Made by a program: the position numbers and the translations under genes. A model generated the notes under the pieces. The model did not search any database, was not told where the DNA came from, and was given only the letters and a program-made list of their open reading frames with translations. DNA of 58,306 nt. Origin: an uncultured Nitrospinaceae bacterium. Its GTDB lineage: Bacteria; UBA8248. The DNA is taken from contig CAZLCI010000003.1 in NCBI GenBank assembly GCA_964558115.1, positions 1-58,306 of the forward strand. The letters are read 5' to 3'. Numbering within the stretch: position 1 is the stretch's first letter; the number at the start of each line of letters is the position of its first letter. Below are positions 7,990 through 52,872 of the stretch, piece after piece.

Positions 7990-8263
7990 CTGTACTCCCT
8001 GAAAAACAAAAACAATGCCAACGAAAACATAATCAAAAATATAAGAAAAAAAACAAAAACTAACTATGGAAAAAAGCCAAACTAACTTTCCACATTAAAT
8101 AAGTCAAGCCCTTGTTAAAACGAAGATAAAAAAATTGGATAGTTGTATTTACCATGAAAAGAACAGAATGTTATATGATAGTTAAAATATGATTTTAAAT
8201 ATTAAAACACTTCCAGTTCGACTTGTACTTTAGTCTAAAAGTATTGCTTCTATGGAGGAAAAA

Positions 8264-13547: not shown

Positions 13548-14531
13548 TTAAGAAGCAGCAGCATTTTCCTTTTTTTGTCTTTCTACCTGTGCTTCTAAAT
13601 ATTTTTCAGCAGCTACAGCAGCTGTAGTAGCATCTCCACTTGCGTTAGTAATTTGCCTTATAAGCTGACTTCTGCAATCACCAGCAACAAAAAGACCCGG
13701 AATACTTGTTTCCATATTCTGATTAGTAATTATAAAGCCAAATTCATCTTTTTCAACAGAATCTTTAATAAGATCCGTGTTTGGTGTAAAACCAACAAAA
13801 ACAAATAATCCTGTGGCATCTAATTCCTGTAATTCATCTGTTTTCACATTGCGAATTTTAAGCTTTTTCATTTCCTTGCCATCACCAACAACTTCATCCA
13901 CAACATGATCCGTAATAATTTCCACTTTTGGGTTTTCCACTAATCTGTCAACAGCAACAGCATGTGCTCGAAATTGTTCTCTTCTATGAATTAAGTAAAC
14001 TTTGGACCCATATTTGGTAAGAAAATTACTTTCTTCAACAGCACTATTTCCACCACCAACAACAGTGATCACTTCGTCTTGAAAAAAAGCTCCATCACAA
14101 AGCGCACAATAACTTACACCCTTGCCAGAATATTCAGTTTCTCCAGGAATTTCAAGCTTTCTAGGTATTCCTCCGGGTGTATAGATAACTGCCCCACACC
14201 GTCTATCACCCATGTCAGTTTTTACTAAAAAATCATCTCCATCTTTAGATATCTCAAGTACCTCTTCCATTTCTATCTTCAATCCAAATTTTATTGCATG
14301 ATCTGTGAATTTTGCCGCTAATTCAGGTCCGCCAATTAAATCAAATCCTGGATAATCTTCAACAAATTCGGTGTTTAATATTTCACCGCCTGGAGCCATT
14401 TTCTCAAAACAAACTACATTTATCTTTGAACGAGAAACATATAGACCTGCTGTCAAACCGGCAGGACCCGCACCCACAATAATTACTTCGTAATCTCTTT
14501 TACTCAAAAAAACCTCAAGAATAAAAACCAC
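13548..14531 (-). CDS. trxB: Thioredoxin-disulfide reductase (NADPH-type)
   Basis: It has the FAD motif GAGPAGLTAG, the redox CALCDG motif, and the NADPH motifs GGGNSAVEE and HRREQFRA. The ORF opens with a GTG at 14531. A TTG at 14507 with a GAGG SD is a plausible true start. Confidence 0.9.
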   Translation of the reverse strand: MVFILEVFLSKRDYEVIIVGAGPAGLTAGLYVSRSKINVVCFEKMAPGGEILNTEFVEDYPGFDLIGGPELAAKFTDHAIKFGLKIEMEEVLEISKDGDDFLVKTDMGDRRCGAVIYTPGGIPRKLEIPGETEYSGKGVSYCALCDGAFFQDEVITVVGGGNSAVEESNFLTKYGSKVYLIHRREQFRAHAVAVDRLVENPKVEIITDHVVDEVVGDGKEMKKLKIRNVKTDELQELDATGLFVFVGFTPNTDLIKDSVEKDEFGFIITNQNMETSIPGLFVAGDCRSQLIRQITNASGDATTAAVAAEKYLEAQVERQKKENAAAS

Positions 14532-14623: not shown

Positions 14624-14869
14624 CTAATTTAAATCAAAGATATTCCTTATTTTATTTTTATCAAAACCAACCACTACATCTTCTCCAGCAATCATAACAG
14701 GCGTTCCGCGTATTCCAGTTTTTTCAACCAATTCTGTAAGGGCATCTGGATCTTTATCAACTAGTTTTTCCTCAAATACAATACTATGCATAGAAAGAAA
14801 CTCTTTCATTTGTTTGCAGGGGGGTCAGGTTGTAGAAGAATAAACTACTATTTTATTAAAATTTTTCAT
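14624..14869 (-). CDS. Glutaredoxin/NrdH-like small redoxin, predicted selenoprotein (U-P-P-C; Sec codon TGA at 14825-14827)
   Basis: Read on the minus strand from the ATG at 14869, which has a GAGG SD 5 nt upstream, the sequence is MKNFNKIVVYSSTT-TGA-PPCKQ. This is in frame with the 61-aa track ORF (MKEFLSMH...GTPVMIAGEDVVVGFD). Together they give an 81-codon Grx-like fold with TGA at the first Cys of CxxC. Confidence 0.75.
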
Positions 14870-14906
14870 TTTTACCTCAATTAAAGTCATGCTAATAAGA
14901 ATATTT

Positions 14907-16274
14907 TTATATTTCAGCCTTGGCAAAAATATCTGTTAACTCCGAAATCTTAATTGTCTCTATTCGAGAAACTGCATCTATTATTTCATCTTTCATTTGA
15001 ACTGAAATGATGTCATCACACAGAAAACCAAATTTCTCTATCACAGACGATAATCCCATAGGATTTGAATAATGTCCTTCATAGGAAGATTTTTCTTTTT
15101 CAAAAATCTTATTTTCTTTATTTGTGATTTTAATTGTCACCGGGGATTCTTCTGGATATCGATTCGTTAGCGCTTCTGAGTTAGAAATTTTCACAAATTT
15201 AAGTAAAGTTTGTACATCCTCTTCCAAAATTCTCTTTTCTTCAAATTGCTCCGGCATTACATTATTATCTATCAAAGCTGCTGCTAAAACATAGGGTAAG
15301 CTATGATCGGCTGTTTCTTTATTTTTTACATCATGCTTATCTCCACCCTTACCTCCACCCATTATAAAGTAAGCACGTTGATAAATTCCAATTTCAACTT
15401 CAGAGATTTCTTTAGGAGTAAGATTATTTTCATTTTTTAACTCAATTACACCTTCTATTGCTGTTTGAGAATGAATTCCAGCATTAAATTTTTTTAAACT
15501 TATCCCGAGAACTTTATTTAAAGATGTATCTTCTAAATTAATATCAAAAGGACCGGTAATAGAGTCAAACAATCCTAAAGGACCCTCAAAAATTTCAGGT
15601 GGCCCAGTTACTCCTCTCATAGCAAGAAAGGTTGCATGTAAAGCATTCGCGCAAGTATTTGCAGTTGAAAAACCCTTCCAATGAGAAATACGACCTGCCC
15701 GAACTATAAGAAAAGGATTTTGTGAAGCCCCGCTTATCCCAATAGCATTTGCCGTTTTTTCTATATTTAAGTTTAAAGCTCTAGAAACTCCAGCTGCTGC
15801 AGAATAAGATATTGCAAGTGCTTGATCAAAACCTTTATCCTCATACGAACAAGAATCGCAAAAACGACATTGGATTTCGTACGCAAGCGCCAATGCAGTC
15901 ATAAAGTCACGTCCGCTTATATCAGCATACTCAGATGCAGCTAATATAGCGCCTAATTGATCACTAGGGTGAGATGTAGCCAGACTGCCCATATAACCAT
16001 CATTAAAATCAAGGTATCTTATTAAGGCAGCATTAAAAAATGCAGCTCGATCAGGTGCAGTTTTGCCTCCGCCAATTAATGAAGTTATTGATGAACCACC
16101 AAATTCTAGAACTTGTTCTTTTAAAAATTGGATAGGTTCAGAACGTAAAGATCCAATCGCACAGGCTATAGCATCTATAAGCAACACTTTCATTCTGTCT
16201 ATTACTTCTTCAGATAAATCATCAAAACTTGATTGATGTGCAAATGTTGCTAATTGATAAGATACTTCTTTCAT
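14907..16274 (-). CDS. MmgE/PrpD family protein (2-methylcitrate dehydratase-like)
   Basis: 455 aa with a PrpD-family pattern across the full length (IDAIACAIG, YLDFNDGY, SHPSD, HSLPYVLAAAL). Confidence 0.85.
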   Translation of the reverse strand: MKEVSYQLATFAHQSSFDDLSEEVIDRMKVLLIDAIACAIGSLRSEPIQFLKEQVLEFGGSSITSLIGGGKTAPDRAAFFNAALIRYLDFNDGYMGSLATSHPSDQLGAILAASEYADISGRDFMTALALAYEIQCRFCDSCSYEDKGFDQALAISYSAAAGVSRALNLNIEKTANAIGISGASQNPFLIVRAGRISHWKGFSTANTCANALHATFLAMRGVTGPPEIFEGPLGLFDSITGPFDINLEDTSLNKVLGISLKKFNAGIHSQTAIEGVIELKNENNLTPKEISEVEIGIYQRAYFIMGGGKGGDKHDVKNKETADHSLPYVLAAALIDNNVMPEQFEEKRILEEDVQTLLKFVKISNSEALTNRYPEESPVTIKITNKENKIFEKEKSSYEGHYSNPMGLSSVIEKFGFLCDDIISVQMKDEIIDAVSRIETIKISELTDIFAKAEI

Positions 16275-28372: not shown

Positions 28373-28717
28373 TTAAGCATGAGCTGCATCTGGCCCTTCT
28401 TGGACTAAATTCACATTCCAGAATGGAATCTCGACTTTAATTAACTCTGCTGTCTCTTCTTGCAAAACAGCCTGGCAAGCTAATCTGCTACAAAGTTCTA
28501 AGTCTCTAGCATCATCTAATTGATCTTCTTCATCTTCGGTTGCTTCATTGAAGCTATCTATTCCCGCCCGAATTTTTACGTGACAAGTGGAACAGGCGCA
28601 AACTCCACCACAAGCATGATCTAAATCTATTCCATTACCTAGAGCCGCTTCTAAAATATTTTCTCCAACTTTTATTTCAATTGTTTTTTCTTCTTCTCTT
28701 ATAAAAAGTTTTGCCAC
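28373..28717 (-). CDS. fdx: ISC-type [2Fe-2S] ferredoxin
   Basis: 114 aa with the adrenodoxin-type ligand pattern HACGGVCACSTCHV ... CQAV. The start is a GTG. Confidence 0.9.
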   Translation of the reverse strand: MAKLFIREEEKTIEIKVGENILEAALGNGIDLDHACGGVCACSTCHVKIRAGIDSFNEATEDEEDQLDDARDLELCSRLACQAVLQEETAELIKVEIPFWNVNLVQEGPDAAHA

Positions 28718-28755
28718 ATGACCCCCTTTAGCCCAATGAAAGATAAAATATCCGA

Positions 28756-30597
28756 TTAATCTTTAAGAGCTTCACTTAATTTCCTGTTTTCAAGCGCAGA
28801 CTTAAGAACATCGTCCATAATTTGATCCGCAAACGGCATTGTTGTTTCATTTAATAAGTCAATTTTTTTACGAATAGCGACGGGATCTTCTCCCGTACAT
28901 TCTTTCTCAAGTTCACTAATTACACGTTTAATTTTTTTAATGTCTTCATCACTAATTTTTATTTTACCTATATTATCAAGAGCTCGAATTGTTGCAACGA
29001 GAATTGTGTGTGCTTCGTTCTTAGATTCCAATAATTGACGCATACGTATGTCTTCTTCCGCAAACTCAAATGATTCTAATAAAATTTTTTCTACTTTTTC
29101 ATCCGTCAAACCATATGAAGGTTGTACTTCTATAGTTGTAGCCTTGCCACTCCTGAGGTCTCTTGCGGTTACATTAAGTATTCCATTTGCATCTATCAGA
29201 AATGTTACTTCAACCCTAGGAATTCCAGCTGCGACAGGATCAATTTTTAAACGGAATCTAGATAAAGATCTATTGTCATTTACTAATTCTCTCTCCCCTT
29301 GAAGTACATGAATATTAACTCCTGTCTGATTGTCTTCAGAAGTAGTGTATATTTCCTTCGCGCTAGCGGGAATGGTAGTATTCCTAGGTATAATCCAACC
29401 CATTGTTCCACCTAAAGTTTCAATCCCTAAGGAAAGAGGTGTTACATCGAGCAAAAGGATGTCTTTTCTGTCACCAGATAAAATTTGGCCTTGAACTGCC
29501 GCTCCTAGCGCTACAACTTCATCGGGATTAATATCAGAATGTGATTTGATTGAAAAAAACTTCTCTGCTGCTTCTTTTACTATTGGCATACGTGTTGAAC
29601 CACCGACTAAAATCAATTCATCAACATCTTTTTTTGTTAAATTTCCGTCTAAAAGAACTTTTTCACATGCATCTAACGTTCGTTTAATAATCGGATTAAA
29701 AATCGATTCCAGTTCTTGGCGTGTAATCTCAATTTCGAACTTTTTGTTAATTTTTGGCAAATTGTCAATAATTATTTTTTTAGAATTACGTTCTAAATTC
29801 GAAAAAGAAATTTTTGTTTCCTCTGCTAAAAGAATCAACCTGGAAACCCCTTCAGGAGTATCATGTAAATCAATAGAAAATAGATTTTTTAATTTGTCAT
29901 TTATCAATTCTGATAATAGTCTATCAAAATCATCTCCTCCTAAATGTGTGTCTCCACCTGTAGACAAAACTTCAAAAATCCCATTTTTAACACGTAAAAT
30001 CGAGATATCGAAAGTGCCGCCACCCAAATCAAAAACAGCAATAACGCCGCGATTTTTTTCATGAAGACCATAAGCAAGGGATGCAGCAGTAGGCTCATTT
30101 ATAATTCGAAGTACATCAAGTCCTGCCAACCTTCCCGCATCTTTTGTAGCCTGTCTTTGAGAATCGTTAAAATATGCTGGTACTGTAATCACTGCTTTTG
30201 TAATTGTTCTTCGTAAAGATTTTTCAGCTCTTGCCTTTAAAGATCTTAATATTATTGAGCTTATTTCTGGTCCACTATATGATTTTCCTCTAGCCTTAAC
30301 ATGAACAACTTCTTTTTCATTAGGATCAATTTCAAAGGGAATAAAACTAAGTTCATTTTTAACATCATCAAAACCTTTCCCCATAAACCGTTTTACCGAA
30401 AAAACTGTACTCCGACTGTTTGTTTTTCGGGATTCTAGAGCTTCGTAACCAGATAAAACGCGATCATTATAAAAAGATACTACTGAAGGAAAAATATTAT
30501 CTTCACCATCAGAAGAAATAATAAAGGGGCCGTCATTATTAGCATAAGCGACTAAACTGTTGGTTGTTCCTAAATCAATACCAATTATATCATTCAC
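28756..30597 (-). CDS. hscA: Fe-S cluster assembly Hsp70-type chaperone HscA
   Basis: 613 aa with Hsp70 signatures (IGIDLGTTNS, DLGGGTFD, LVGGSTRMP) and an isc operon context. Confidence 0.95.
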   Translation of the reverse strand: MNDIIGIDLGTTNSLVAYANNDGPFIISSDGEDNIFPSVVSFYNDRVLSGYEALESRKTNSRSTVFSVKRFMGKGFDDVKNELSFIPFEIDPNEKEVVHVKARGKSYSGPEISSIILRSLKARAEKSLRRTITKAVITVPAYFNDSQRQATKDAGRLAGLDVLRIINEPTAASLAYGLHEKNRGVIAVFDLGGGTFDISILRVKNGIFEVLSTGGDTHLGGDDFDRLLSELINDKLKNLFSIDLHDTPEGVSRLILLAEETKISFSNLERNSKKIIIDNLPKINKKFEIEITRQELESIFNPIIKRTLDACEKVLLDGNLTKKDVDELILVGGSTRMPIVKEAAEKFFSIKSHSDINPDEVVALGAAVQGQILSGDRKDILLLDVTPLSLGIETLGGTMGWIIPRNTTIPASAKEIYTTSEDNQTGVNIHVLQGERELVNDNRSLSRFRLKIDPVAAGIPRVEVTFLIDANGILNVTARDLRSGKATTIEVQPSYGLTDEKVEKILLESFEFAEEDIRMRQLLESKNEAHTILVATIRALDNIGKIKISDEDIKKIKRVISELEKECTGEDPVAIRKKIDLLNETTMPFADQIMDDVLKSALENRKLSEALKD

Positions 30598-30598
30598 T

Positions 30599-31225
30599 TT
30601 AAGAACCCATTGCCCTGTCTAAACTTAATAAAATATTTTCAATATAATTTCTCAGACTTAACACTAATCTAATTTTTTGTATTAGTTCATCATCTGACAA
30701 ATATTGTGCCTCTGTTCGTTCATCCCAAGCTTTAGCATATTCTTCTAGGATTTCATTTTGCGATTTTCTGAAAGTTTCAAAACATTCTTTCGCAGCTAAA
30801 ACCCGTTTTTTCAGTTCTTCCGCTTTATCTTCTTCAAGACAACATTCAAGTTCCGCGGCTGTCTCCTGTGCTTCTAAAATTTCTTCTAACAAATCTGCGG
30901 GAGGATTAGAATCGTTTTCTTTTAACTTCCCGTTTTCTAGCTCTACTAAGTAGATCATTCGAAGAATACGGTTGCCCAATACTCTCTTTGCTTCATTGAT
31001 TCTGGTAGTAGCATCTAAACTTCTTATTTTTTCCGTTGTATTCGCATTTTGAAAAAAATCGGGATGTAATTGTTTACTTAAATCAAAAAAAACTTTTTCT
31101 AAAATACTAGAATCTATATTCATCTTTCTTGGTAAACCTAAAAGAGAAAAATGATCTATTTCATTGGGAATAGCTTTTATTGAGCCATTCTTATTGAATA
31201 AATGAAAAGAATTAGATTCCAGCAA
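30599..31225 (-). CDS. hscB: Fe-S assembly J-type co-chaperone HscB
   Basis: 208 aa with a J-domain carrying the HPD motif (LHPDFF) and a C-terminal helical domain. It lies immediately upstream of hscA. The apparent start is a TTG. Confidence 0.85.
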   Translation of the reverse strand: MLESNSFHLFNKNGSIKAIPNEIDHFSLLGLPRKMNIDSSILEKVFFDLSKQLHPDFFQNANTTEKIRSLDATTRINEAKRVLGNRILRMIYLVELENGKLKENDSNPPADLLEEILEAQETAAELECCLEEDKAEELKKRVLAAKECFETFRKSQNEILEEYAKAWDERTEAQYLSDDELIQKIRLVLSLRNYIENILLSLDRAMGS

Positions 31226-31271
31226 AAAATTCTCCTCTTACATCCTTTTTCTAAAATGTTGCATCTTAATT

Positions 31272-31314
31272 AAAAAACGCGCCGCGTTAAAGTTAATAAG
31301 CGCGTCGCGTTTCC
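31272..31314 (-). terminator. GC-rich hairpin flanked by A/T runs between iscA and hscB (intrinsic terminator or attenuator candidate)
   Basis: The minus-strand RNA reads AAACGCGACGCG-CUUAUUAACUUUAA-CGCGGCGCGUUUUUU. This gives a stem of about 11 bp with one mismatch, a 10-12 nt loop and a U6 tail. It lies 13 nt after the iscA stop. Confidence 0.55.
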
Positions 31315-31326
31315 TAAAAAATATCT

Positions 31327-31683
31327 CTATGCGGAAAAACTTTCCCCACAACCACAAGATTGTCGTGCATTTGGATTTTTAAAAGTGAATCCTTGTCCAT
31401 TCAGCCCATCCTCAAAATCCAAAATAGTTCCAGCCAGGAAAATAAGACTTTTTTTATCAATAACAAAGGAAACGCTACTATTTTCGATCACTTGATCTAT
31501 AAGCGGATTTGTTTTTTCTTTGTTTTCAAATCTAAGAACGTAAGAAAGACCTGAACATCCACCACCTTTAACGCCAACTCGGACAACTTGATCTGAATTG
31601 CCCTCTTTTTCCATTAATCTCTTAGCATTAGAAACTGCTTTCTCTGTTATTTCTATAGTTCTGTTTTTGTCAACTACGCTCAA
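31327..31683 (-). CDS. iscA: Fe-S cluster insertion/A-type carrier protein IscA
   Basis: 118 aa with the HesB/IscA pattern (VRVGVKGGGCSGLSY ... C-terminal CGCGESF). Confidence 0.9.
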   Translation of the reverse strand: MSVVDKNRTIEITEKAVSNAKRLMEKEGNSDQVVRVGVKGGGCSGLSYVLRFENKEKTNPLIDQVIENSSVSFVIDKKSLIFLAGTILDFEDGLNGQGFTFKNPNARQSCGCGESFSA

Positions 31684-31707
31684 AGGTATCCCTTTCTAAA
31701 ATCAGCT

Positions 31708-32118
31708 TTAATGATGTCCTTCGTGTTCAACTTCTTCTATTCCATTTTTAGAGCGATAATCATTTAAGGCTGTTTTTATCGCGTCTTCTGCCAAAACTGA
31801 GCAATGAATTTTTACTGGAGGAAGATTTAGCTCTTCAACTATCTGTGTATTTTGTATTTCATGGGCTTCATCTAGATTTTTCCCTTTTAGCCACTCAGTG
31901 GCAAGAGAACTAGAGGCAATAGCACTTCCGCAGCCAAAAGTTTTAAATTTCGCGTCTTCTATAACACCACTATCATTAACTTTTATTTGCAATTTCATCA
32001 CATCACCACATTCCGGCGCACCAACAATTCCAGTTCCTACGGTTTTATCGCCTTTATCCAATGAACCAACATTACGCGGATTATTGTAATGATCTACAAC
32101 TTTGTCACTATAAGCCAT
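31708..32118 (-). CDS. iscU: Fe-S cluster scaffold IscU
   Basis: 136 aa with the blocks YSDKVVDHYNNPRNVG, GAPECGDVMKLQIKV, FKTFGCGSAIASSS and LPPVKIHCSVLAEDA. Confidence 0.95.
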   Translation of the reverse strand: MAYSDKVVDHYNNPRNVGSLDKGDKTVGTGIVGAPECGDVMKLQIKVNDSGVIEDAKFKTFGCGSAIASSSLATEWLKGKNLDEAHEIQNTQIVEELNLPPVKIHCSVLAEDAIKTALNDYRSKNGIEEVEHEGHH

Positions 32119-32161
32119 TTTAAAAAACCTCCTGTCTTAGATATAGTTTTTGATCATTTAA

Positions 32162-33382
32162 TTAATGGGATTGCCATTCAACTTTTGAAAGATCCACTCC
32201 CTCTTTAACCATTTCATAAAGGGGGCTCATCTCTCTTAGTCTCTTCACTATAGAGGCTGTCTTTTCAGCCACATAATCTATTTCTTCTTCAGTAGAGAAG
32301 CGCCCAAAGCCATATCTAATCGAAGAATGCGCTAACTCATCACCTTTTCCCATGGATTTTAAAACATAGCTTGGCTCTAGACTAGCAGAAGTACATGCGG
32401 ATCCAGAAGAAACCGCTACATCGCTAAGCCCCATTATCAGAGATTCTCCCTCAACATAAGGATAACTAATATTTAAATTTCCTGGCAAACGATTTGTTTC
32501 ATGTCCATTTACATAAACTTCTTCTAAACTTTCGAAAATTATAGACCTAAATTTCTCTCGCAAATTAGTGAGGCGAATTGTTTCACTTTCCATTTCTTCC
32601 GAACATAACTCTGCTGCTTTTCCAAATCCAACAATACCAGAAACGTTTAAAGTTCCAGAGCGCATCCCTCGTTCGTGTCCTCCGCCATCAATGATAGCCG
32701 AAAGACGAACTCTAGGCTTTCTTCTTCTAACATAAAGCATCCCTATACCCTTTGGGCCATATACCTTATGGGCGGTTGCAGATAAAAGATCTATGCCCAT
32801 TTCATTAACATCTATTGGAACTTTACCAAAACCTTGAGTTGCATCTGTATGAAAGAGTATTCCTTTCTCATGACAAAATTTACCTATTTCTTGAATCGGA
32901 TTAATAACACCTATTTCATTATTCGCGTGCATAATAGAAACCAAAATCGTATCTTCCCTAATTGCATCCTCTATCATTTTAAGAGAAGTAATTCCATCAT
33001 CTGGAGGATCAATGTAAGTCACATCAAATCCCCATGTTTCAAGTCTCTTCGCAGAATCAATGATAGCTTTATGTTCTATGGAAGATGTAACTATATGGTT
33101 CCCCTTGCTCTTATACATTTCAGCAACGCCTTTTAGGGCCATATTATCGGACTCAGTAGCTCCGCTTGTAAAAATTATCTCCCTTGGATCGGCATTTATA
33201 ACATTTGCGATTTGTTCTCTTGCCTTATCAACAGCTTTTTCAGCTTCCCATCCATAACTGTGGTTTCTGCTAGCTGCGTTACCAAAAGTATCCGTAAAAT
33301 AAGGCGTCATTGCCTCAAGTACTCTAGGATCCATTGGCGTCGTTGCTTGGTAGTCCATATAAATTGGGAACTTCAGGCTCAT
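32162..33382 (-). CDS. iscS: Cysteine desulfurase IscS
   Basis: 406 aa with the PLP lysine block [14 protein letters not shown] and the active-site loop SSGSACTS. It overlaps the 3' end of iscR by 4 nt. Confidence 0.95.
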
Positions 33383-33807
33383 TTTATTTCTCCCGCCGGC
33401 ACACCGGCCATATCAAAAATAGTCATCCCTTCAAGTAATTCCGTTATTCTACCTTGAAGTTGCCCCATAGGATGAAAGATAGAGCAATTTCTGTACTGTT
33501 CACAGTCATCAGCATTTGTAATCTGACAACTTGTTATGGCAATTGGTCCTTCTATTGCCCTTACAACCTCTGCTATCGTAATTGTATCTGGCTCCTTTGC
33601 TAATACGTACCCTCCTTTTGGACCATTTTTTGATTCTACAAGCCCTTTTTTAGCCAATAATTGCATTGTTTTAGCAAGTAACTCAGAAGGCAAGGCACAT
33701 GCCTGCGCTATAGTTTTCGCATTTGTTGCGTTATCATTTTCAAAGTGGGTTGCAAGATAATGCAAGGCCATTAGGCCATAATCTGTTTGTTTTGTAAAAG
33801 CAAGCAA
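33379..33807 (-). CDS. iscR: Rrf2-family Fe-S regulator IscR
   Basis: 142 aa with an Rrf2 wHTH ([12 protein letters not shown]...[33 protein letters not shown]) and a Cys-containing C-terminal half. The TTG start has an AAGGAG SD 5 nt upstream. Confidence 0.85.
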
Positions 33808-47443: not shown

Positions 47444-48761
47444 AAGATTCTATTTTTTCAATTAGAGAGTTTACGGTTGAGGCGATAGAGGTGTTTTCTT
47501 TTATTTGTCTTGTTATTTTGTTTGTCGAGTGAATAACTGTAGAATGATCTTTCCCCCCAAACCTTGCCCCAATCTCTGTGGTTGAAGCGGCCGAAAGCTT
47601 TCTTGAAAGATACATAGCAATTTGCCTTGGTTCGGCAAAAATCCTAGATCTGTTTTTCGATTTCAGATCCGAAACCCTAACCTGGAAGAACTCTGCAACT
47701 ATTTTTTGAATTTCATCAATCGAGATGCCTTTTTGTGGGTCTCTTATGGTGTTTTTGAGTATTTCTTTGGCGTCGTCTATGTTTATCTCGGTTCCGTGAA
47801 GAGAGGAGTGGAAAACCAGTTTCACCAAACACCCTTCCAGCTCCCTGATGTTTGACCTAACCTTTTCTGCTATAAAATGTGCAACATCTTTCTGGATGTC
47901 AAAGTTGAGTTCAGATGCCTTTTTTTGAATTATTGCGACTTTTGTTTCAAAGTCCGGGGCCCCAATGTCGGCCATTATTCCCCAAACAAACCTAGCTTTC
48001 AGTCTCTCTGCAAGCCCAGGTGTGTCTTTTGGGTTTTTGTCGCTGGTCATTATGATTTGCTTTCCGGACTCATGCAGGGCGTTGAATGTAAAGAAGAACT
48101 CTTCTTGTGTTCTCTCTTTGCCCGCTATAAACTGAATATCGTCAATTAAAAGGTAGTCTATTTTTCTGTATCTTGAGCGAAAATCCACCATTTTGTTTTT
48201 TTGTATTGATGAAATTAAATCGTTTATAAAGTTTTCGGATGACGTATAAAAAACTTTCGCCCGCTCTTTTTTTTCTAAAACCTGATGTCCTATGGCATGG
48301 AGGAGGTGTGTTTTGCCAAGACCAACGCCACCGTAAATAAAAAGAGGGTTTAGGTTTTTTGTTGAGTCTTCAATGATCTGGAGGCTACAGGCGTGCGCAA
48401 ATTCGTTTGACGCCCCTACAACGAAACTATCAAAGGTATATTTGGGATTCAAAAATTTAGGCTTCTTGGGTTTGATTAGGATTTTTTCAGGCCCACCTTC
48501 TTCCCTCGCCTCAATCTTCTTTTGTGCTTTTGAGGGCACAAACCTAAGCCCAGAAATGGAGTTCTCAAGGCTTACAACTTCTTCTATGATAGCCGAAAAA
48601 CGATTGGTGATAGTTTCGACACAAAATGAATCAGGAACTTCCACAAAAAGTTCTTTTTCATTTAAAAATATTGGCCTTGTGTTTTTAAACCACCTTTCAA
48701 ACGCTTCTTCTGAAACGCCTTTTTTTATTCCAAGTAAACAGTTGTCCCAGGCTTCTATCAT
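47439..48761 (-). CDS. dnaA: Chromosomal replication initiator DnaA
   Basis: 440 aa with the AAA+ Walker A (GGVGLGKTHLLHAIG), LLIDDIQF, and the C-terminal DnaA-box binding domain (RQIAMYLSRKL...GGKDHSTV). Confidence 0.95.
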   Translation of the reverse strand: MIEAWDNCLLGIKKGVSEEAFERWFKNTRPIFLNEKELFVEVPDSFCVETITNRFSAIIEEVVSLENSISGLRFVPSKAQKKIEAREEGGPEKILIKPKKPKFLNPKYTFDSFVVGASNEFAHACSLQIIEDSTKNLNPLFIYGGVGLGKTHLLHAIGHQVLEKKERAKVFYTSSENFINDLISSIQKNKMVDFRSRYRKIDYLLIDDIQFIAGKERTQEEFFFTFNALHESGKQIIMTSDKNPKDTPGLAERLKARFVWGIMADIGAPDFETKVAIIQKKASELNFDIQKDVAHFIAEKVRSNIRELEGCLVKLVFHSSLHGTEINIDDAKEILKNTIRDPQKGISIDEIQKIVAEFFQVRVSDLKSKNRSRIFAEPRQIAMYLSRKLSAASTTEIGARFGGKDHSTVIHSTNKITRQIKENTSIASTVNSLIEKIESL

Positions 48762-49764: not shown

Positions 49765-51453
49765 ATGGAAAAAAATGCTATTTTAGCTGCCGTTCTTTCT
49801 TTGGCTGTACTGTTGGGGTGGCAGTATTTTTTTGTTCCGCAAGTGCCCCAGAAGAAAAAGGTTGTCGAAACAAGAACGCTGCCAAAAGAAAAGCGGCTCT
49901 CGGGGCAGAAGAGATCTATAACAGACAGGGCAATCACCATTTCGCCCAAGAAAAGCCATGCTCTTGTGGCTAAGAACCTAAAAGGAAGCAAGAAGTCTTT
50001 GCCAAAAAATTTTAAGGAGGTTCTAGTTAAGGTTGATGTCGGCAATGCGGTCTATGGTTTGTCAAATCATGGCGCAGGTTTTGTACAGATGCAACTGAAT
50101 GATTATAAAGACGACAAGGGCAGGCTTATTGATCTGGCTAAAGGGTTTTATCCTGACCTAAAACCGTTGTTTTTTTGGGGAAAAGGAAGCGGAATATTAA
50201 ACCGTTCTGTTTATAAGGTTTATGTTAATGGACAAGAGGTAACAGAAAACAAAACAATAAAAATTAGCCCCAAAAAAGGAAGCCAAAAAGTTTCTTTTGT
50301 TTTAGAGGGCAGAAACCAAGGTCAGGTCGAAAAGACCTTGGTCTTTAGCGCCGGAAGCTACAGGATACCCACTACGATTCTCCTTCGTAACACAAAAGGC
50401 ATGGGCGCTATTGGAGTTGCCCTTGGTCCTTCGGTTGGAGGGAGCGACGGCGACACTTACGGTGGCGTTATAGAAGGGCCGATGTCTTTTGTAGACAAGG
50501 ATATTGTTTATGATAATCCAGAGTCTGACAATGAACAGCCAAAATATGACAAAAACGTCAAATGGACTTCCTTGCAGTCTAAATATTTCATAACAGCCCT
50601 AGTCCCAAGAACTGGTTCGGGTGGAGCTCAGATAAATCTTTTGAAGGCAAACAAAGACAAGGCGAATGATTATGCGGCCATAGTGCCTTTGCGATTAGAA
50701 AACTCAAGGGTTTTGGCAACCATGGACTTATATGCTGGCCCAAAGGAGGTTCAGCGCATGTCTAAATTAGGCGTTATGTTAGAAGAGTCTCTCGATTACG
50801 GAATTTTTTCTTTTGTTGCCTCACCCCTTATCTCGCTTCTAAGAATATGCAATGCCGTGACAATGAACTGGGGGCTTGCAATAATTCTTTTAACCATAAT
50901 CATAAAGCTCATTTTTTATCCACTTACACATTTTAGCATGAAGAACATGAAGGGTATGCAAAAGCTACAGCCTAAGATGGCGCAGATTCGGGAGATTTAC
51001 AAAGACGACAAAACCAAAATGAACCAGCAGCTCATGTCTTTGTATAAAGAAAATAAAGTGAACCCCATGATGGGTTGCCTCCCAATGTTAATACAAATGC
51101 CTATTTTTTTTGGTTTATACGAGGGACTTCTGGTTGCTATAGAAATTCGAAACGCCCCTTTCTTTTGGTGGATTACAGATCTTTCAAAGCAAGATCCATA
51201 TCATGTCTATACGATCTTGATGGGGATTTCAATGTTTATACAACAAAAAATGACCCCCACAGCAGGAGATCCTTCTCAGGCCAAAATGATGATGTTTATG
51301 CCTATAATTTTCTGTGGAATGTTTATTTTCTACCCTGTTCCTTCAGGCCTTGTTATTTACTGGTTTGTGAACAATGTTCTTTCAATCGCACAACAGTTTT
51401 TCGTGAATCGAACTGTGCAAACCCCGAAACTTGCAGAAGAAAAAGAATCGTAA
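49765..51453 (+). CDS. yidC: Membrane protein insertase YidC (with a large periplasmic P1 domain)
   Basis: 562 aa with one TM segment, a periplasmic domain of about 300 aa, and the conserved 60-kDa IMP core (WGLAIILLTIIIKLIFYPL, NPMMGCLPMLIQMPIFFGLY, GLVIYWFVNN). Confidence 0.95.
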   Translation: MEKNAILAAVLSLAVLLGWQYFFVPQVPQKKKVVETRTLPKEKRLSGQKRSITDRAITISPKKSHALVAKNLKGSKKSLPKNFKEVLVKVDVGNAVYGLSNHGAGFVQMQLNDYKDDKGRLIDLAKGFYPDLKPLFFWGKGSGILNRSVYKVYVNGQEVTENKTIKISPKKGSQKVSFVLEGRNQGQVEKTLVFSAGSYRIPTTILLRNTKGMGAIGVALGPSVGGSDGDTYGGVIEGPMSFVDKDIVYDNPESDNEQPKYDKNVKWTSLQSKYFITALVPRTGSGGAQINLLKANKDKANDYAAIVPLRLENSRVLATMDLYAGPKEVQRMSKLGVMLEESLDYGIFSFVASPLISLLRICNAVTMNWGLAIILLTIIIKLIFYPLTHFSMKNMKGMQKLQPKMAQIREIYKDDKTKMNQQLMSLYKENKVNPMMGCLPMLIQMPIFFGLYEGLLVAIEIRNAPFFWWITDLSKQDPYHVYTILMGISMFIQQKMTPTAGDPSQAKMMMFMPIIFCGMFIFYPVPSGLVIYWFVNNVLSIAQQFFVNRTVQTPKLAEEKES

Positions 51454-51478: not shown

Positions 51479-52114
51479 ATGAATATTTTCGGTTTAAAAA
51501 TAAAACAAGGACCTGTAGTTTTTACCGTTGCCGTTTTTTTCGTTGTGGGATTTATTAATTACTACACAAAGGCTCGATACAACCCAAAGCCTTTTGTGCA
51601 AAAGATTTGTCCGCCTCAAAAAGTATGTGTTTTAGAATTTTCTGACTACGGCTGACCTGACTGTGCCTTGGTGCAGGATGCGCTTATTAAAATCGAAAAA
51701 AAATACAACGGCCGCGTAGTAGTGAAAAAATTTGCCTTTCCTCTCTCCGAAGCGACCTTTGGAGCAACCGAAGCAGTTCTGTGTGTAAAGAGTTCTGGCA
51801 AAAGAAAAATCATGAGTGGTCTGATATACAAAAACCAAGGGAAATGGAAGAACAATCGGTATCCCGAGTCTTTGTGGAAATCGTACGCAAAAAAAAGCGG
51901 CGCAGATTTGACTAGATGGGAAAAATGCATAAAGCAAAAAGACAGTTCAAAAAGAATAAAGAAATCTAGAGATTTGGGGCTGGGTTTAGGTGTAAGGGTT
52001 ACGCCTACCTTTTTTATTGGGGAGATAAAAATGGAAGGATCTAGGTCTATTGGGCAACTCAAAAGAGTAATAGAGAGAAACGTTTTAAAGCTAAACGAAA
52101 GAGCTAGGAAATGA
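51479..52114 (+). CDS. Membrane-anchored DsbA-family thiol:disulfide oxidoreductase, predicted selenoprotein (U-P-D-C; Sec codon TGA at 51653-51655)
   Basis: The ATG at 51479 opens MNIFGLKIKQGPVVFTVAVFFVVGFINYY...VCVLEFSDYG-TGA-PDCA. This is in frame with the track ORF 51668-52114, which continues LVQDAL...GVRVTPTFFIGE. Together they reconstitute the DsbA hallmark FSDY-x-CPxC and the cis-Pro TPTFF loop. Confidence 0.75.
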
Positions 52115-52872
52115 AAAAAAGACCCTCAATTTTTGGACAATTAGCCGTTGTGACAGGAGCTGCGTCTGGTATAGGGGAGGCGGTTGTGTCTCGCTTTGCA
52201 GACGAAGGGGCGAGGATAGCTCTTCTAGATAAAGACAAAAAAAAAGGAGAGTCTCTTAGTCAATATCTTTCTTCTGAAGGCGTCAATGCAAAGTTCTATG
52301 AATGTGATGTTACACAAGAAAGGTCAGTGAGTACGACGTTTGATTTAATTTTAAAAAATTTGGGATCAATTCAAATTTTAATAAACTGCGCCGGTGGTTT
52401 TTTTGAAAATCCATCTCTTGAAACTGTTACAGAAAGTCACTGGGAAGAAGTCCTTGAATTGAACTTAAAATCGGTTTATTTGTGCTCAAGAAGAGCAGTT
52501 CCTTCAATGAAAGAATCGAAATATGGAAGAATAGTTAACGTTTCCTCTCAAACCGCTCGCGAAGGGTTAGTGGAAACGTCGTTGCCATATGGAGCCGCTA
52601 AAGCCGGAGTTTTGGGTTTAACTAGAAGGCTTGCTAGCGAACTCGCCTTAGATGGAATTACAGTCAACGCGGTTGCTCCTGGAGTAGTTTTATCTCCGAG
52701 GGTTGCCGAACTACACAAAGAAAGGCTACCCAGGCTCATGTCTGAAATCCCTATGAATCGTGCGGGAGGGGCGGAAGAGATTGCTGACGGGATTTGGTAT
52801 TTGTCTACCCCCGGCGCATCTTATATAACCGGGGTTACACTTGACATTAACGGCGGCCGGTATATGGGATAA
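52111..52872 (+). CDS. Short-chain dehydrogenase/reductase (FabG-like)
   Basis: 253 aa with TGAASGIGEA, NCAG and the catalytic S...YGAAK motifs. It has an ATGA start/stop overlap with the preceding DsbA-like gene. Confidence 0.85.
   Translation: MKKRPSIFGQLAVVTGAASGIGEAVVSRFADEGARIALLDKDKKKGESLSQYLSSEGVNAKFYECDVTQERSVSTTFDLILKNLGSIQILINCAGGFFENPSLETVTESHWEEVLELNLKSVYLCSRRAVPSMKESKYGRIVNVSSQTAREGLVETSLPYGAAKAGVLGLTRRLASELALDGITVNAVAPGVVLSPRVAELHKERLPRLMSEIPMNRAGGAEEIADGIWYLSTPGASYITGVTLDINGGRYMG

Follow-up and report, generated by a model that had tools for sequence, protein, structure and literature searches.

A candidate selenocysteine codon in the active site of a DsbA/DsbG-like gene behind yidC in a marine Nitrospinaceae bacterium

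Introduction

Is the 214-nt stretch that seems to separate yidC from the next listed open reading frame (ORF) in a marine Nitrospinaceae genome a gap between genes, or is it the front half of a gene that has been cut at a recoded TGA? The question is raised by a 58,306-nt stretch of DNA from an uncultured marine bacterium whose GC content is about 36% (contig CAZLCI010000003.1, here called the window), in which the stop of yidC at 51453 and the TTG at 51668 that starts the listed ORF stand 214 nt apart. The original prediction held that this interval is coding and that a TGA within it takes the place of the first active-site cysteine of a membrane-anchored DsbA-like oxidoreductase. Here we report that the apparent gap contains the front half of a single 211-codon gene (51479–52114, + strand), and that this gene very probably encodes a membrane-anchored thiol-disulfide enzyme of the DsbA/DsbG type in which UGA codon 59 specifies selenocysteine (Sec).

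Results

One reading frame spans the apparent gap and the TGA

The frame opened by the ATG at 51479 passes through the TGA at 51653–51655, joins the listed ORF and meets its next stop only at 52114; because it is continuous into that ORF, the 214-nt interval is coding. The TTG at 51668 is codon 64 of this frame, in phase with the ATG and 63 codons (189 nt) from it. Translation gives MNIFGLKIKQGPVVFTVAVFFVVGFINYY…KVCVLEFSDYG, then the TGA, then PDCALVQ…, which places the TGA at codon 59 within an active-site motif that would read U-P-D-C (codons 59–62; 51653–51664). The proposed Sec-bearing tryptic peptide, VCVLEFSDYG-U-PDCALVQDALIK, spans this codon, which stands in a UGA-C context and reads TGACC in all orthologues. 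On re-reading, the sequence agreed with the original prediction on the start codon, the distance to the TTG, the position of the TGA with the residues around it and the CC behind it, and the VTPTFF cis-Pro loop and the ATGA overlap with a downstream short-chain dehydrogenase/reductase (SDR) gene were likewise present.

A scan of the window for TGAs flanked by open frame (at least 30 codons on each side and at least 150 together) returned 14, and the TGA at 51653 was the sole one in a C/U-x-x-C context. Gene callers nevertheless split the gene: all of the public assemblies examined list a 58-aa ORF and, separately, an ORF of 130 to 147 aa.

The TGA aligns with the first cysteine of a DsbA-type active site

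With U written as C, the joined protein matched the Pfam family PF13462 (Thioredoxin_4; gathering threshold 23.2 bits) at 67.6 bits, over residues 48–199 and profile positions 14–164 of 165, whereas the truncated ORF reached 45.8 bits and covered profile positions 34–164 only. The comparison with this profile that had been proposed alongside the original prediction thus credits the upstream piece with 22 bits. Cysteine-containing homologues (P0007, P0008 and 80 genomic homologues) read EFSDY[GQ]-C-PxC across the same region; the genomic set was collected with the pattern EFSDY[GQ]CP, U again written as C, and that scan returned Cys homologues only. A CPxC lying elsewhere in such proteins had been named as grounds for abandoning the claim, and it sits exactly at the TGA.

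Relatives with the same recoding were found in metagenomes. A scan for E-F-x-D-Y-x-TGA-P-x-C returned at least 120 stretches, from which 122 sites with open frame on both sides were extracted. When the window protein was compared with these 122 Sec sites by BLASTP, nearly all of them matched (117 alignment rows at E ≤1e-3), the better matches being 26–35% identical over most of the domain. Two of the Sec relatives (L116 and L117) are multi-domain proteins with three tandem Thioredoxin_4-like repeats per ORF and Sec in one repeat only.

The best sequence matches in the PDB were ScsC, actinobacterial MdbA/DsbA and BdbD, aligned over residues 45–205 including the T-P loop. The cis-Pro loop lies at T175-P176 (VTPTFF; 52001–52006, +) and aligns with the GTP of ScsC structures. 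From these alignments we assign the protein to the DsbA superfamily, with a predicted thioredoxin fold that carries a helical insert and the cis-Pro loop. Within the helical insert there is a non-catalytic cysteine pair, C102 (51782–84) and C150 (51926–28), with a span of 51782–51928 (+), which is invariant also in P0007 and P0008 and can be seen in the Sec relatives. In exported members of the family such pairs form structural disulfides, and C102/C150 would presumably form one here. Two further cysteines, C44 and C50, occupy the linker ahead of the domain (KICPPQKVC; 51608–51628, +) and are present in all six orthologues; together with the dipeptide inside U-P-D-C they are specific to this clade. 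As a side observation, the linker pattern K-I-C-P-P-x-K-x-C may represent an extra disulfide or a metal site, and the best PDB matches are ScsC proteins of copper resistance.

Purifying selection acts on both sides of the TGA

Searched against proteins with U replaced by C, the joined sequence recovered five orthologue clusters, all of them called as fragments of 146 or 147 aa. The contigs that carry them share the order dnaA<, rnpA, yidD, yidC, X, SDR, mnmE, mnmG, and on several of them the upstream piece has been called as a separate 58-aa ORF. Six distinct orthologous sequences were obtained, 68–81% identical to the window protein, in addition to two further contigs that are 99.7–100% identical to the window gene. 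Translation of the DNA upstream of the called fragments showed that the start, the hydrophobic segment, EFSDYG, the TGA and PDCA are retained in all six. Consistent loss of the upstream 58 codons in orthologues would have spoken against the original prediction; every one of the six keeps them. The placement of the TGA at the first Cys of a DsbA-type site accordingly survived all of the refutation tests named with it that could be run.

The ratio of nonsynonymous to synonymous substitution rates (dN/dS) was 0.05–0.11 for codons 1–58 and 0.08–0.19 for codons 65–205, in both cases with a saturated dS of at least 1. The upstream 58 codons are more conserved among the orthologues than the C-terminal part, and codons 60–64, which lie between the TGA and the annotated start, show synonymous or conservative changes only. 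The same TGA is present in independent Tara, ENA, NCBI and Logan assemblies and in six diverged lineages. Neither a pseudogene nor an assembly error nor two independent genes would account for the conserved frame and the low dN/dS across the TGA. The idea of a pseudogene, or of a TGA created by sequencing or assembly, draws on the in-frame stop and on nothing further; given the recurrence of the codon in the four sets of assemblies and the dN/dS of about 0.1 on both of its sides, it is effectively refuted.

More can be said for the locus yielding two products, a 58-aa membrane peptide and a 147-aa thioredoxin-like protein that lacks the active site and starts at GTG 51671 or TTG 51668. This is what gene callers predict in every assembly, and the GTG (codon 65) is conserved in six of six orthologues. 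The cut would, however, separate strand beta1 (VCVLEFSDY) of the thioredoxin fold from the helix of the active site, at a place where Cys homologues are continuous and where the upstream piece adds its 22 bits to the PF13462 match. Moreover, the TTG is replaced by TTA or GTT in orthologues, and codons 60–64 are under purifying selection in frame. We regard two separate products as very improbable, and a single product read through codon 59 as the far better account of the locus.

Recoding is local and recurs in at least two other genes of the genome

TGA ends 11 of the 53 long ORFs of the window, which rules out a global codon reassignment (code 4 or 25). Two other genes carry a TGA at a redox position. 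The first, in the window, is a Grx/NrdH-like gene (14624–14890, −) with the motif VVYSSTT-U-PPC and its TGA at 14825–14827; it lies directly upstream of a TrxB-like flavoprotein gene (13548–14531, −) and is probably the gene that the original prediction counted as its first recoded one. A hairpin, GAAAGA-GUU-UCUUUC, starts 17 nt after its UGA, so that the GUU loop begins 23 nt after the codon. The second is a UGSC-family gene (PF24696) with the motif AALGG-U-GSC, represented by two called ORFs that are continuous through the TGA. It lies about 6 kb to the right of the window, on contigs with 99.7–100% identity to it over the dsbA-like gene (L213, 15980–16510 with the TGA at 16268; the same in L214), and a strong hairpin, GUUAUGCA-GUG-UGCAUGAC, follows its TGA. 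The classical marine families of selenoproteins include both UGSC and Grx-like proteins, and UGSC is represented in GOS by 255 Sec members versus 21 Cys members (PMC2398784).

These observations bear on a different reading of UGA 51653, in which a lineage that has no working Sec system would insert Cys or Trp by near-cognate or suppressor decoding, or in which Cys would be inserted through the Sec pathway. In its favour, and against Sec, stands a negative search result: neither selA, selB or selD nor a tRNA-Sec was detected in the window and in about 10 kb beyond each end, some 80 kb in all, where the search used ARAGORN and Rfam on the window and Pfam on 20 ORFs in addition to the flanks. The UGA-C context is intrinsically leaky, and the candidate for a selenocysteine insertion sequence (SECIS) described below is thermodynamically weak. 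Against this stand three genes in one genome (Grx-like, DsbG-like and UGSC) that place TGA at the redox cysteine of known selenoprotein families, and whose common SECIS-like design follows only 0.5% of TGAs. In addition, a lineage deprived of Sec would be expected to fix TGT or TGC, yet the TGA has been kept across saturated dS. Read-through that inserts a residue other than Sec consequently appears improbable, and we retain Sec as the residue that UGA 51653 would specify.

A minimal hairpin 16 nt after the TGA is the better SECIS candidate

The bacterial SECIS (bSECIS) consensus comprises a loop of 3–9 nt with a G in its first two positions, a stem of 4–16 bp, a UGA-loop spacing of 16–37 nt and a minimum free energy (MFE) of −7.5 kcal/mol or lower (PMC13188914). 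The original prediction had pointed to the hairpin CUGUGC-CUUG-GUGCAG (51661–51676, +), which indeed exists, with 6 bp that include two G-U pairs. As a SECIS it departs from the consensus on two counts: the distance from the UGA to its loop is 11 nt, and the loop sequences (CUUG, UUUA or UGUU among the orthologues) do not follow the G rule. An overlapping and mutually exclusive hairpin, GUGCA-GGA-UGCGC (51671–51683, +), fits better. Its stem has 5 bp (6 with G51670-U51684), its apical loop GGA (51676–51678) begins 20 nt after the UGA and follows the N1-G[G|U]N-N2 pattern, and loop, stem, G and spacing all lie within the consensus ranges.

Three further lines of evidence point to the same hairpin. 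First, of 103 distinct Sec relatives, 76 have a dominant hairpin whose loop begins between +22 and +26, compared with +24 for 51671–51683, and only one of the 103 has a loop as early as that of 51661–51676 (+15). The distribution of loop positions was used here after a single covariance model had been dropped, as the registers of the subfamilies differ in the ungapped codon alignment. Second, four codons at the hairpin (V65 GTG, Q66 CAG, A68 GCR and L69 CTT) are invariant in six of six orthologues, while free variation is seen at other codons for Leu, Ala, Gly and Ser. Third, all three recoded genes of the genome have a stem closed by A-U and a GNN triloop at +23 to +27. This A-GNN-U motif follows 10 of the 1984 TGAs of the window (0.5%); the two Cys-aligned TGAs are among them and, by coordinate arithmetic, are the sole in-frame ones, the other eight being out of frame or intergenic.

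The eight background TGAs with the motif lie at 48133(+), 53095(+), 53101(+), 58156(+), 56272(−), 48816(−), 18844(−) and 8106(−). The hairpin at 8106 has 9 bp and is intergenic, upstream of the atp operon.

Several observations weigh against a SECIS at 51671–51683. The hairpin reaches only −4.5 to −5.2 kcal/mol in this strain, set against the threshold of −7.5, and the region downstream of the TGA folds no better than shuffled sequence (z = 0.05). Among the six orthologues no double-sided compensatory change was seen, and in two of them the A-U closing pair is lost and the loop becomes AGGAG. The conservation of GTG codon 65 could reflect use as a start codon if there were two genes, and the A-GNN-U motif was partly defined after the hairpin had been seen. 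Folds that contain its equivalent in the orthologues range from −7.0 to −12.6 kcal/mol.

The functional element of a selenoprotein gene could also be 51661–51676 itself, or a third register in which 51663–66 pairs with 51680–83. Taken alone, 51661–51676 is more stable than 51671–51683 in four of the six orthologues including this strain (−5.9 vs −4.5 kcal/mol), although less stable in the other two, and RNAalifold recovers it as the consensus across the six with all pairs retained. Such retention is uninformative, because the Y-ending codons (GAY, UGY) pair with G either way. Its loop, at 11 nt, falls short of the 16–37 nt of the consensus, a position seen in only one of the 103 Sec relatives, and the hairpin does not resemble those of the two other recoded genes. 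We therefore judge these other registers unlikely. On balance the SECIS probably corresponds to 51671–51683, which moves the assignment 10 nt downstream of the one first made.

An N-terminal anchor may place the enzyme in the periplasm

A single hydrophobic segment near the N-terminus (residues ~12–27, PVVFTVAVFFVVGFIN; 51512–51559, +) is presumed to be a signal-anchor. Its Kyte-Doolittle mean over 19 residues was 1.9–2.6 in three orthologues, and no other segment exceeded 1.2. Neither a lipobox nor an AXA cleavage site was seen; residues 1–43 contain no Cys, and INYYTKAR follows the hydrophobic segment. Of the periplasm-facing anchor originally proposed, the single hydrophobic segment is borne out, whereas the orientation is ambiguous by its flanking charges: two K precede the segment and four K/R follow it in a very basic protein, a distribution that under the positive-inside rule lends no support to a periplasmic domain. 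The invariance of C102 and C150 supports a periplasmic location, and we consider it likely that the thiol-disulfide domain faces the periplasm. No DsbB, VKOR, DsbD or ScsB was noticed among the scanned ORFs, in which no search aimed at redox partners was made.

Between yidC and an SDR gene, the DsbA-like gene is specific to its clade

On the upstream side, yidC (49765–51453, +) ends 25 nt before the ATG, and no terminator-like site was found between the two in a plus-strand scan. The gene has no Shine-Dalgarno sequence, which is unremarkable since only 22 of 48 window ORFs have one. On the downstream side, its stop overlaps the start of the SDR gene in an ATGA (52111–52114, +); the overlap is 4 nt in orthologues L001-L003 and 1 nt in L004-L007 and L009. 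The SDR (adh_short; 52111–52872, +) has 253 aa and would be translationally coupled.

Sister lineages of higher GC and about 60% DnaA identity (L215, 5553–8755; L216, 4652–8782) keep yidC…SDR…mnmE and have a methyltransferase gene, in L216 together with a FliG_C-like ORF, in place of the DsbA-like gene. The selenoprotein gene is accordingly a clade-specific occupant of this slot. By DnaA, the closest named relatives of the bacterium itself are Nitrospinota MAGs with an identity of 58%. No Cys version was found at the locus in these two lineages, which hence offer no Cys/Sec sister pair.

Elsewhere in the window, an apparently complete isc cluster (iscR-iscS-iscU-iscA-hscB-hscA-fdx; 28373–33807, −) was recognized from ORF translations as read, with no family search. 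Genes for a protein with TPR and FGE-sulfatase domains and for a double-rhodanese protein adjoin the presumed gyrA, and an FGE-sulfatase/rhodanese pair stands beside gyrA in L215 as well.

Discussion

A model for expression and activity

According to the model, ribosomes would start at the ATG at 51479, 25 nt behind yidC, with which the gene probably shares a transcript. On reaching codon 59, a UGA in a context of weak termination, they would decode it as Sec, the hairpin 16–28 nt downstream (51671–83) presumably recruiting SelB with Sec-tRNA(Sec). Translation would then end with the stop at 52114, which overlaps the start of the coupled SDR gene. The predicted 211-aa product would consist of the membrane anchor, the cysteine linker (C44, C50) and a thioredoxin domain with U59-P-D-C62, the helical insert with C102/C150, and T175-P176. 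Its most likely activity, whether as an oxidase, a reductase or an isomerase, would be periplasmic thiol-disulfide exchange that proceeds by way of a selenenylsulfide and in which Sec makes the nucleophilic attack.

Taken with the other recoded genes, the locus invites a wider reading, which we put forward as doubtful: that all selenoproteins of the lineage depend on a SECIS of unusually small size (a 5–8 bp stem, A-U closure and a G-first triloop ~20–24 nt after the UGA), which lies under the standard stability threshold in the DsbA-like gene and probably also in the Grx-like gene, and that one of the targets is a membrane-anchored, periplasm-facing Sec-DsbA that has an atypical U-P-D-C site and is linked genetically to YidC and an SDR. 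If this were true, the selenoproteins of such genomes would systematically escape the present finders that rely on a SECIS, and envelope redox chemistry would involve an exported selenenylsulfide oxidoreductase.

The immediate value of the result is for annotation, as it restores a split gene and points to at least two more that are split likewise in the same genome. It also suggests that selenium is spent on thiol-redox enzymes, of which one is probably exported, in a marine lineage that is abundant and uncultured. The minimal SECIS hairpins of the three genes, all from one AT-rich genome, make up a small and internally consistent set with which SECIS finders could be better tuned. Existing knowledge of recoding or of DsbA-type enzymes is not changed.

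Comparison with known systems

The hairpin at 51671–83 resembles the bSECIS consensus, of which the E. coli fdhF SECIS is the classical example, in having a 3-nt loop that starts with GG, a 20-nt spacing and 4 bp or more in the stem; it also follows the N1-G[G|U]N-N2 pattern, with A-U as the closing pair. It differs in an MFE above the −7.5 threshold here and in having no conserved lower stem.

Among Cys-type proteins of known structure, all extracytoplasmic, the closest are ScsC (4xvw, 6nen, 6mhh, 4gxz), MdbA/DsbA (4pwp, 4pwo) and BdbD (3eu3), with E-values of 1e-7 to 1e-4. They resemble the present protein in F-x-DY-x-CPxC, in the helical insert and in the cis-Pro loop; they have Cys where it would have Sec, and ScsC is without the C102/C150 pair. 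Among exported Sec/Cys families, NF041057 (Rcas_1661 family thioredoxin-like (seleno)lipoprotein) has a homologous domain, aligned at model positions 91–246 of 247. Its members carry a lipoprotein signal, in contrast to the protein described here, which has no lipobox and scores 47.5 bits against a curated cutoff of 190; membership was rejected. Seven sampled Sec relatives from soil and sediment also fall under that cutoff.

DsbA-like selenoproteins of form 1 are FrnE-like proteins of PF01323/COG2761 with a UxxC site (PMC1088965, PMC13188914). The present protein is like them in its DsbA-superfamily fold, the UxxC and the marine occurrence, whereas its match to PF01323 is partial, 37.6 bits in two stretches compared with 67.6 for PF13462. 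Proteins of COG2761 are generally soluble.

The nearest relatives are the DsbG-like selenoproteins (COG1651/PF13462, UxxC), which PMC9312934 traces to Kryukov and Gladyshev 2004 in citing that work. They have been recorded from the Sargasso Sea (PMC1088965), from bacterial genomes (PMC1794560) and in a table of families (PMC9312934), as 5 Sec and 728 Cys sequences in GOS (PMC2398784), and again in a 2026 review (PMC13188914). The present gene has in common with them the Thioredoxin_4 domain, a UxxC with Sec first, as the nucleophile, and a candidate SECIS downstream inside the coding region. It is set apart by an identity of 26–35% to the Sec relatives, by UPDC where these have UP[YFHWAS]C, by a short and apparently uncleaved anchor, by a very AT-rich and minimal candidate SECIS (5–6 bp and a triloop), and by its fixed place between yidC and the SDR gene at the replication origin. 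Judged by these features, the protein represents a putative distinct, membrane-anchored marine subfamily within a class of selenoproteins that has been known since 2004–2005.

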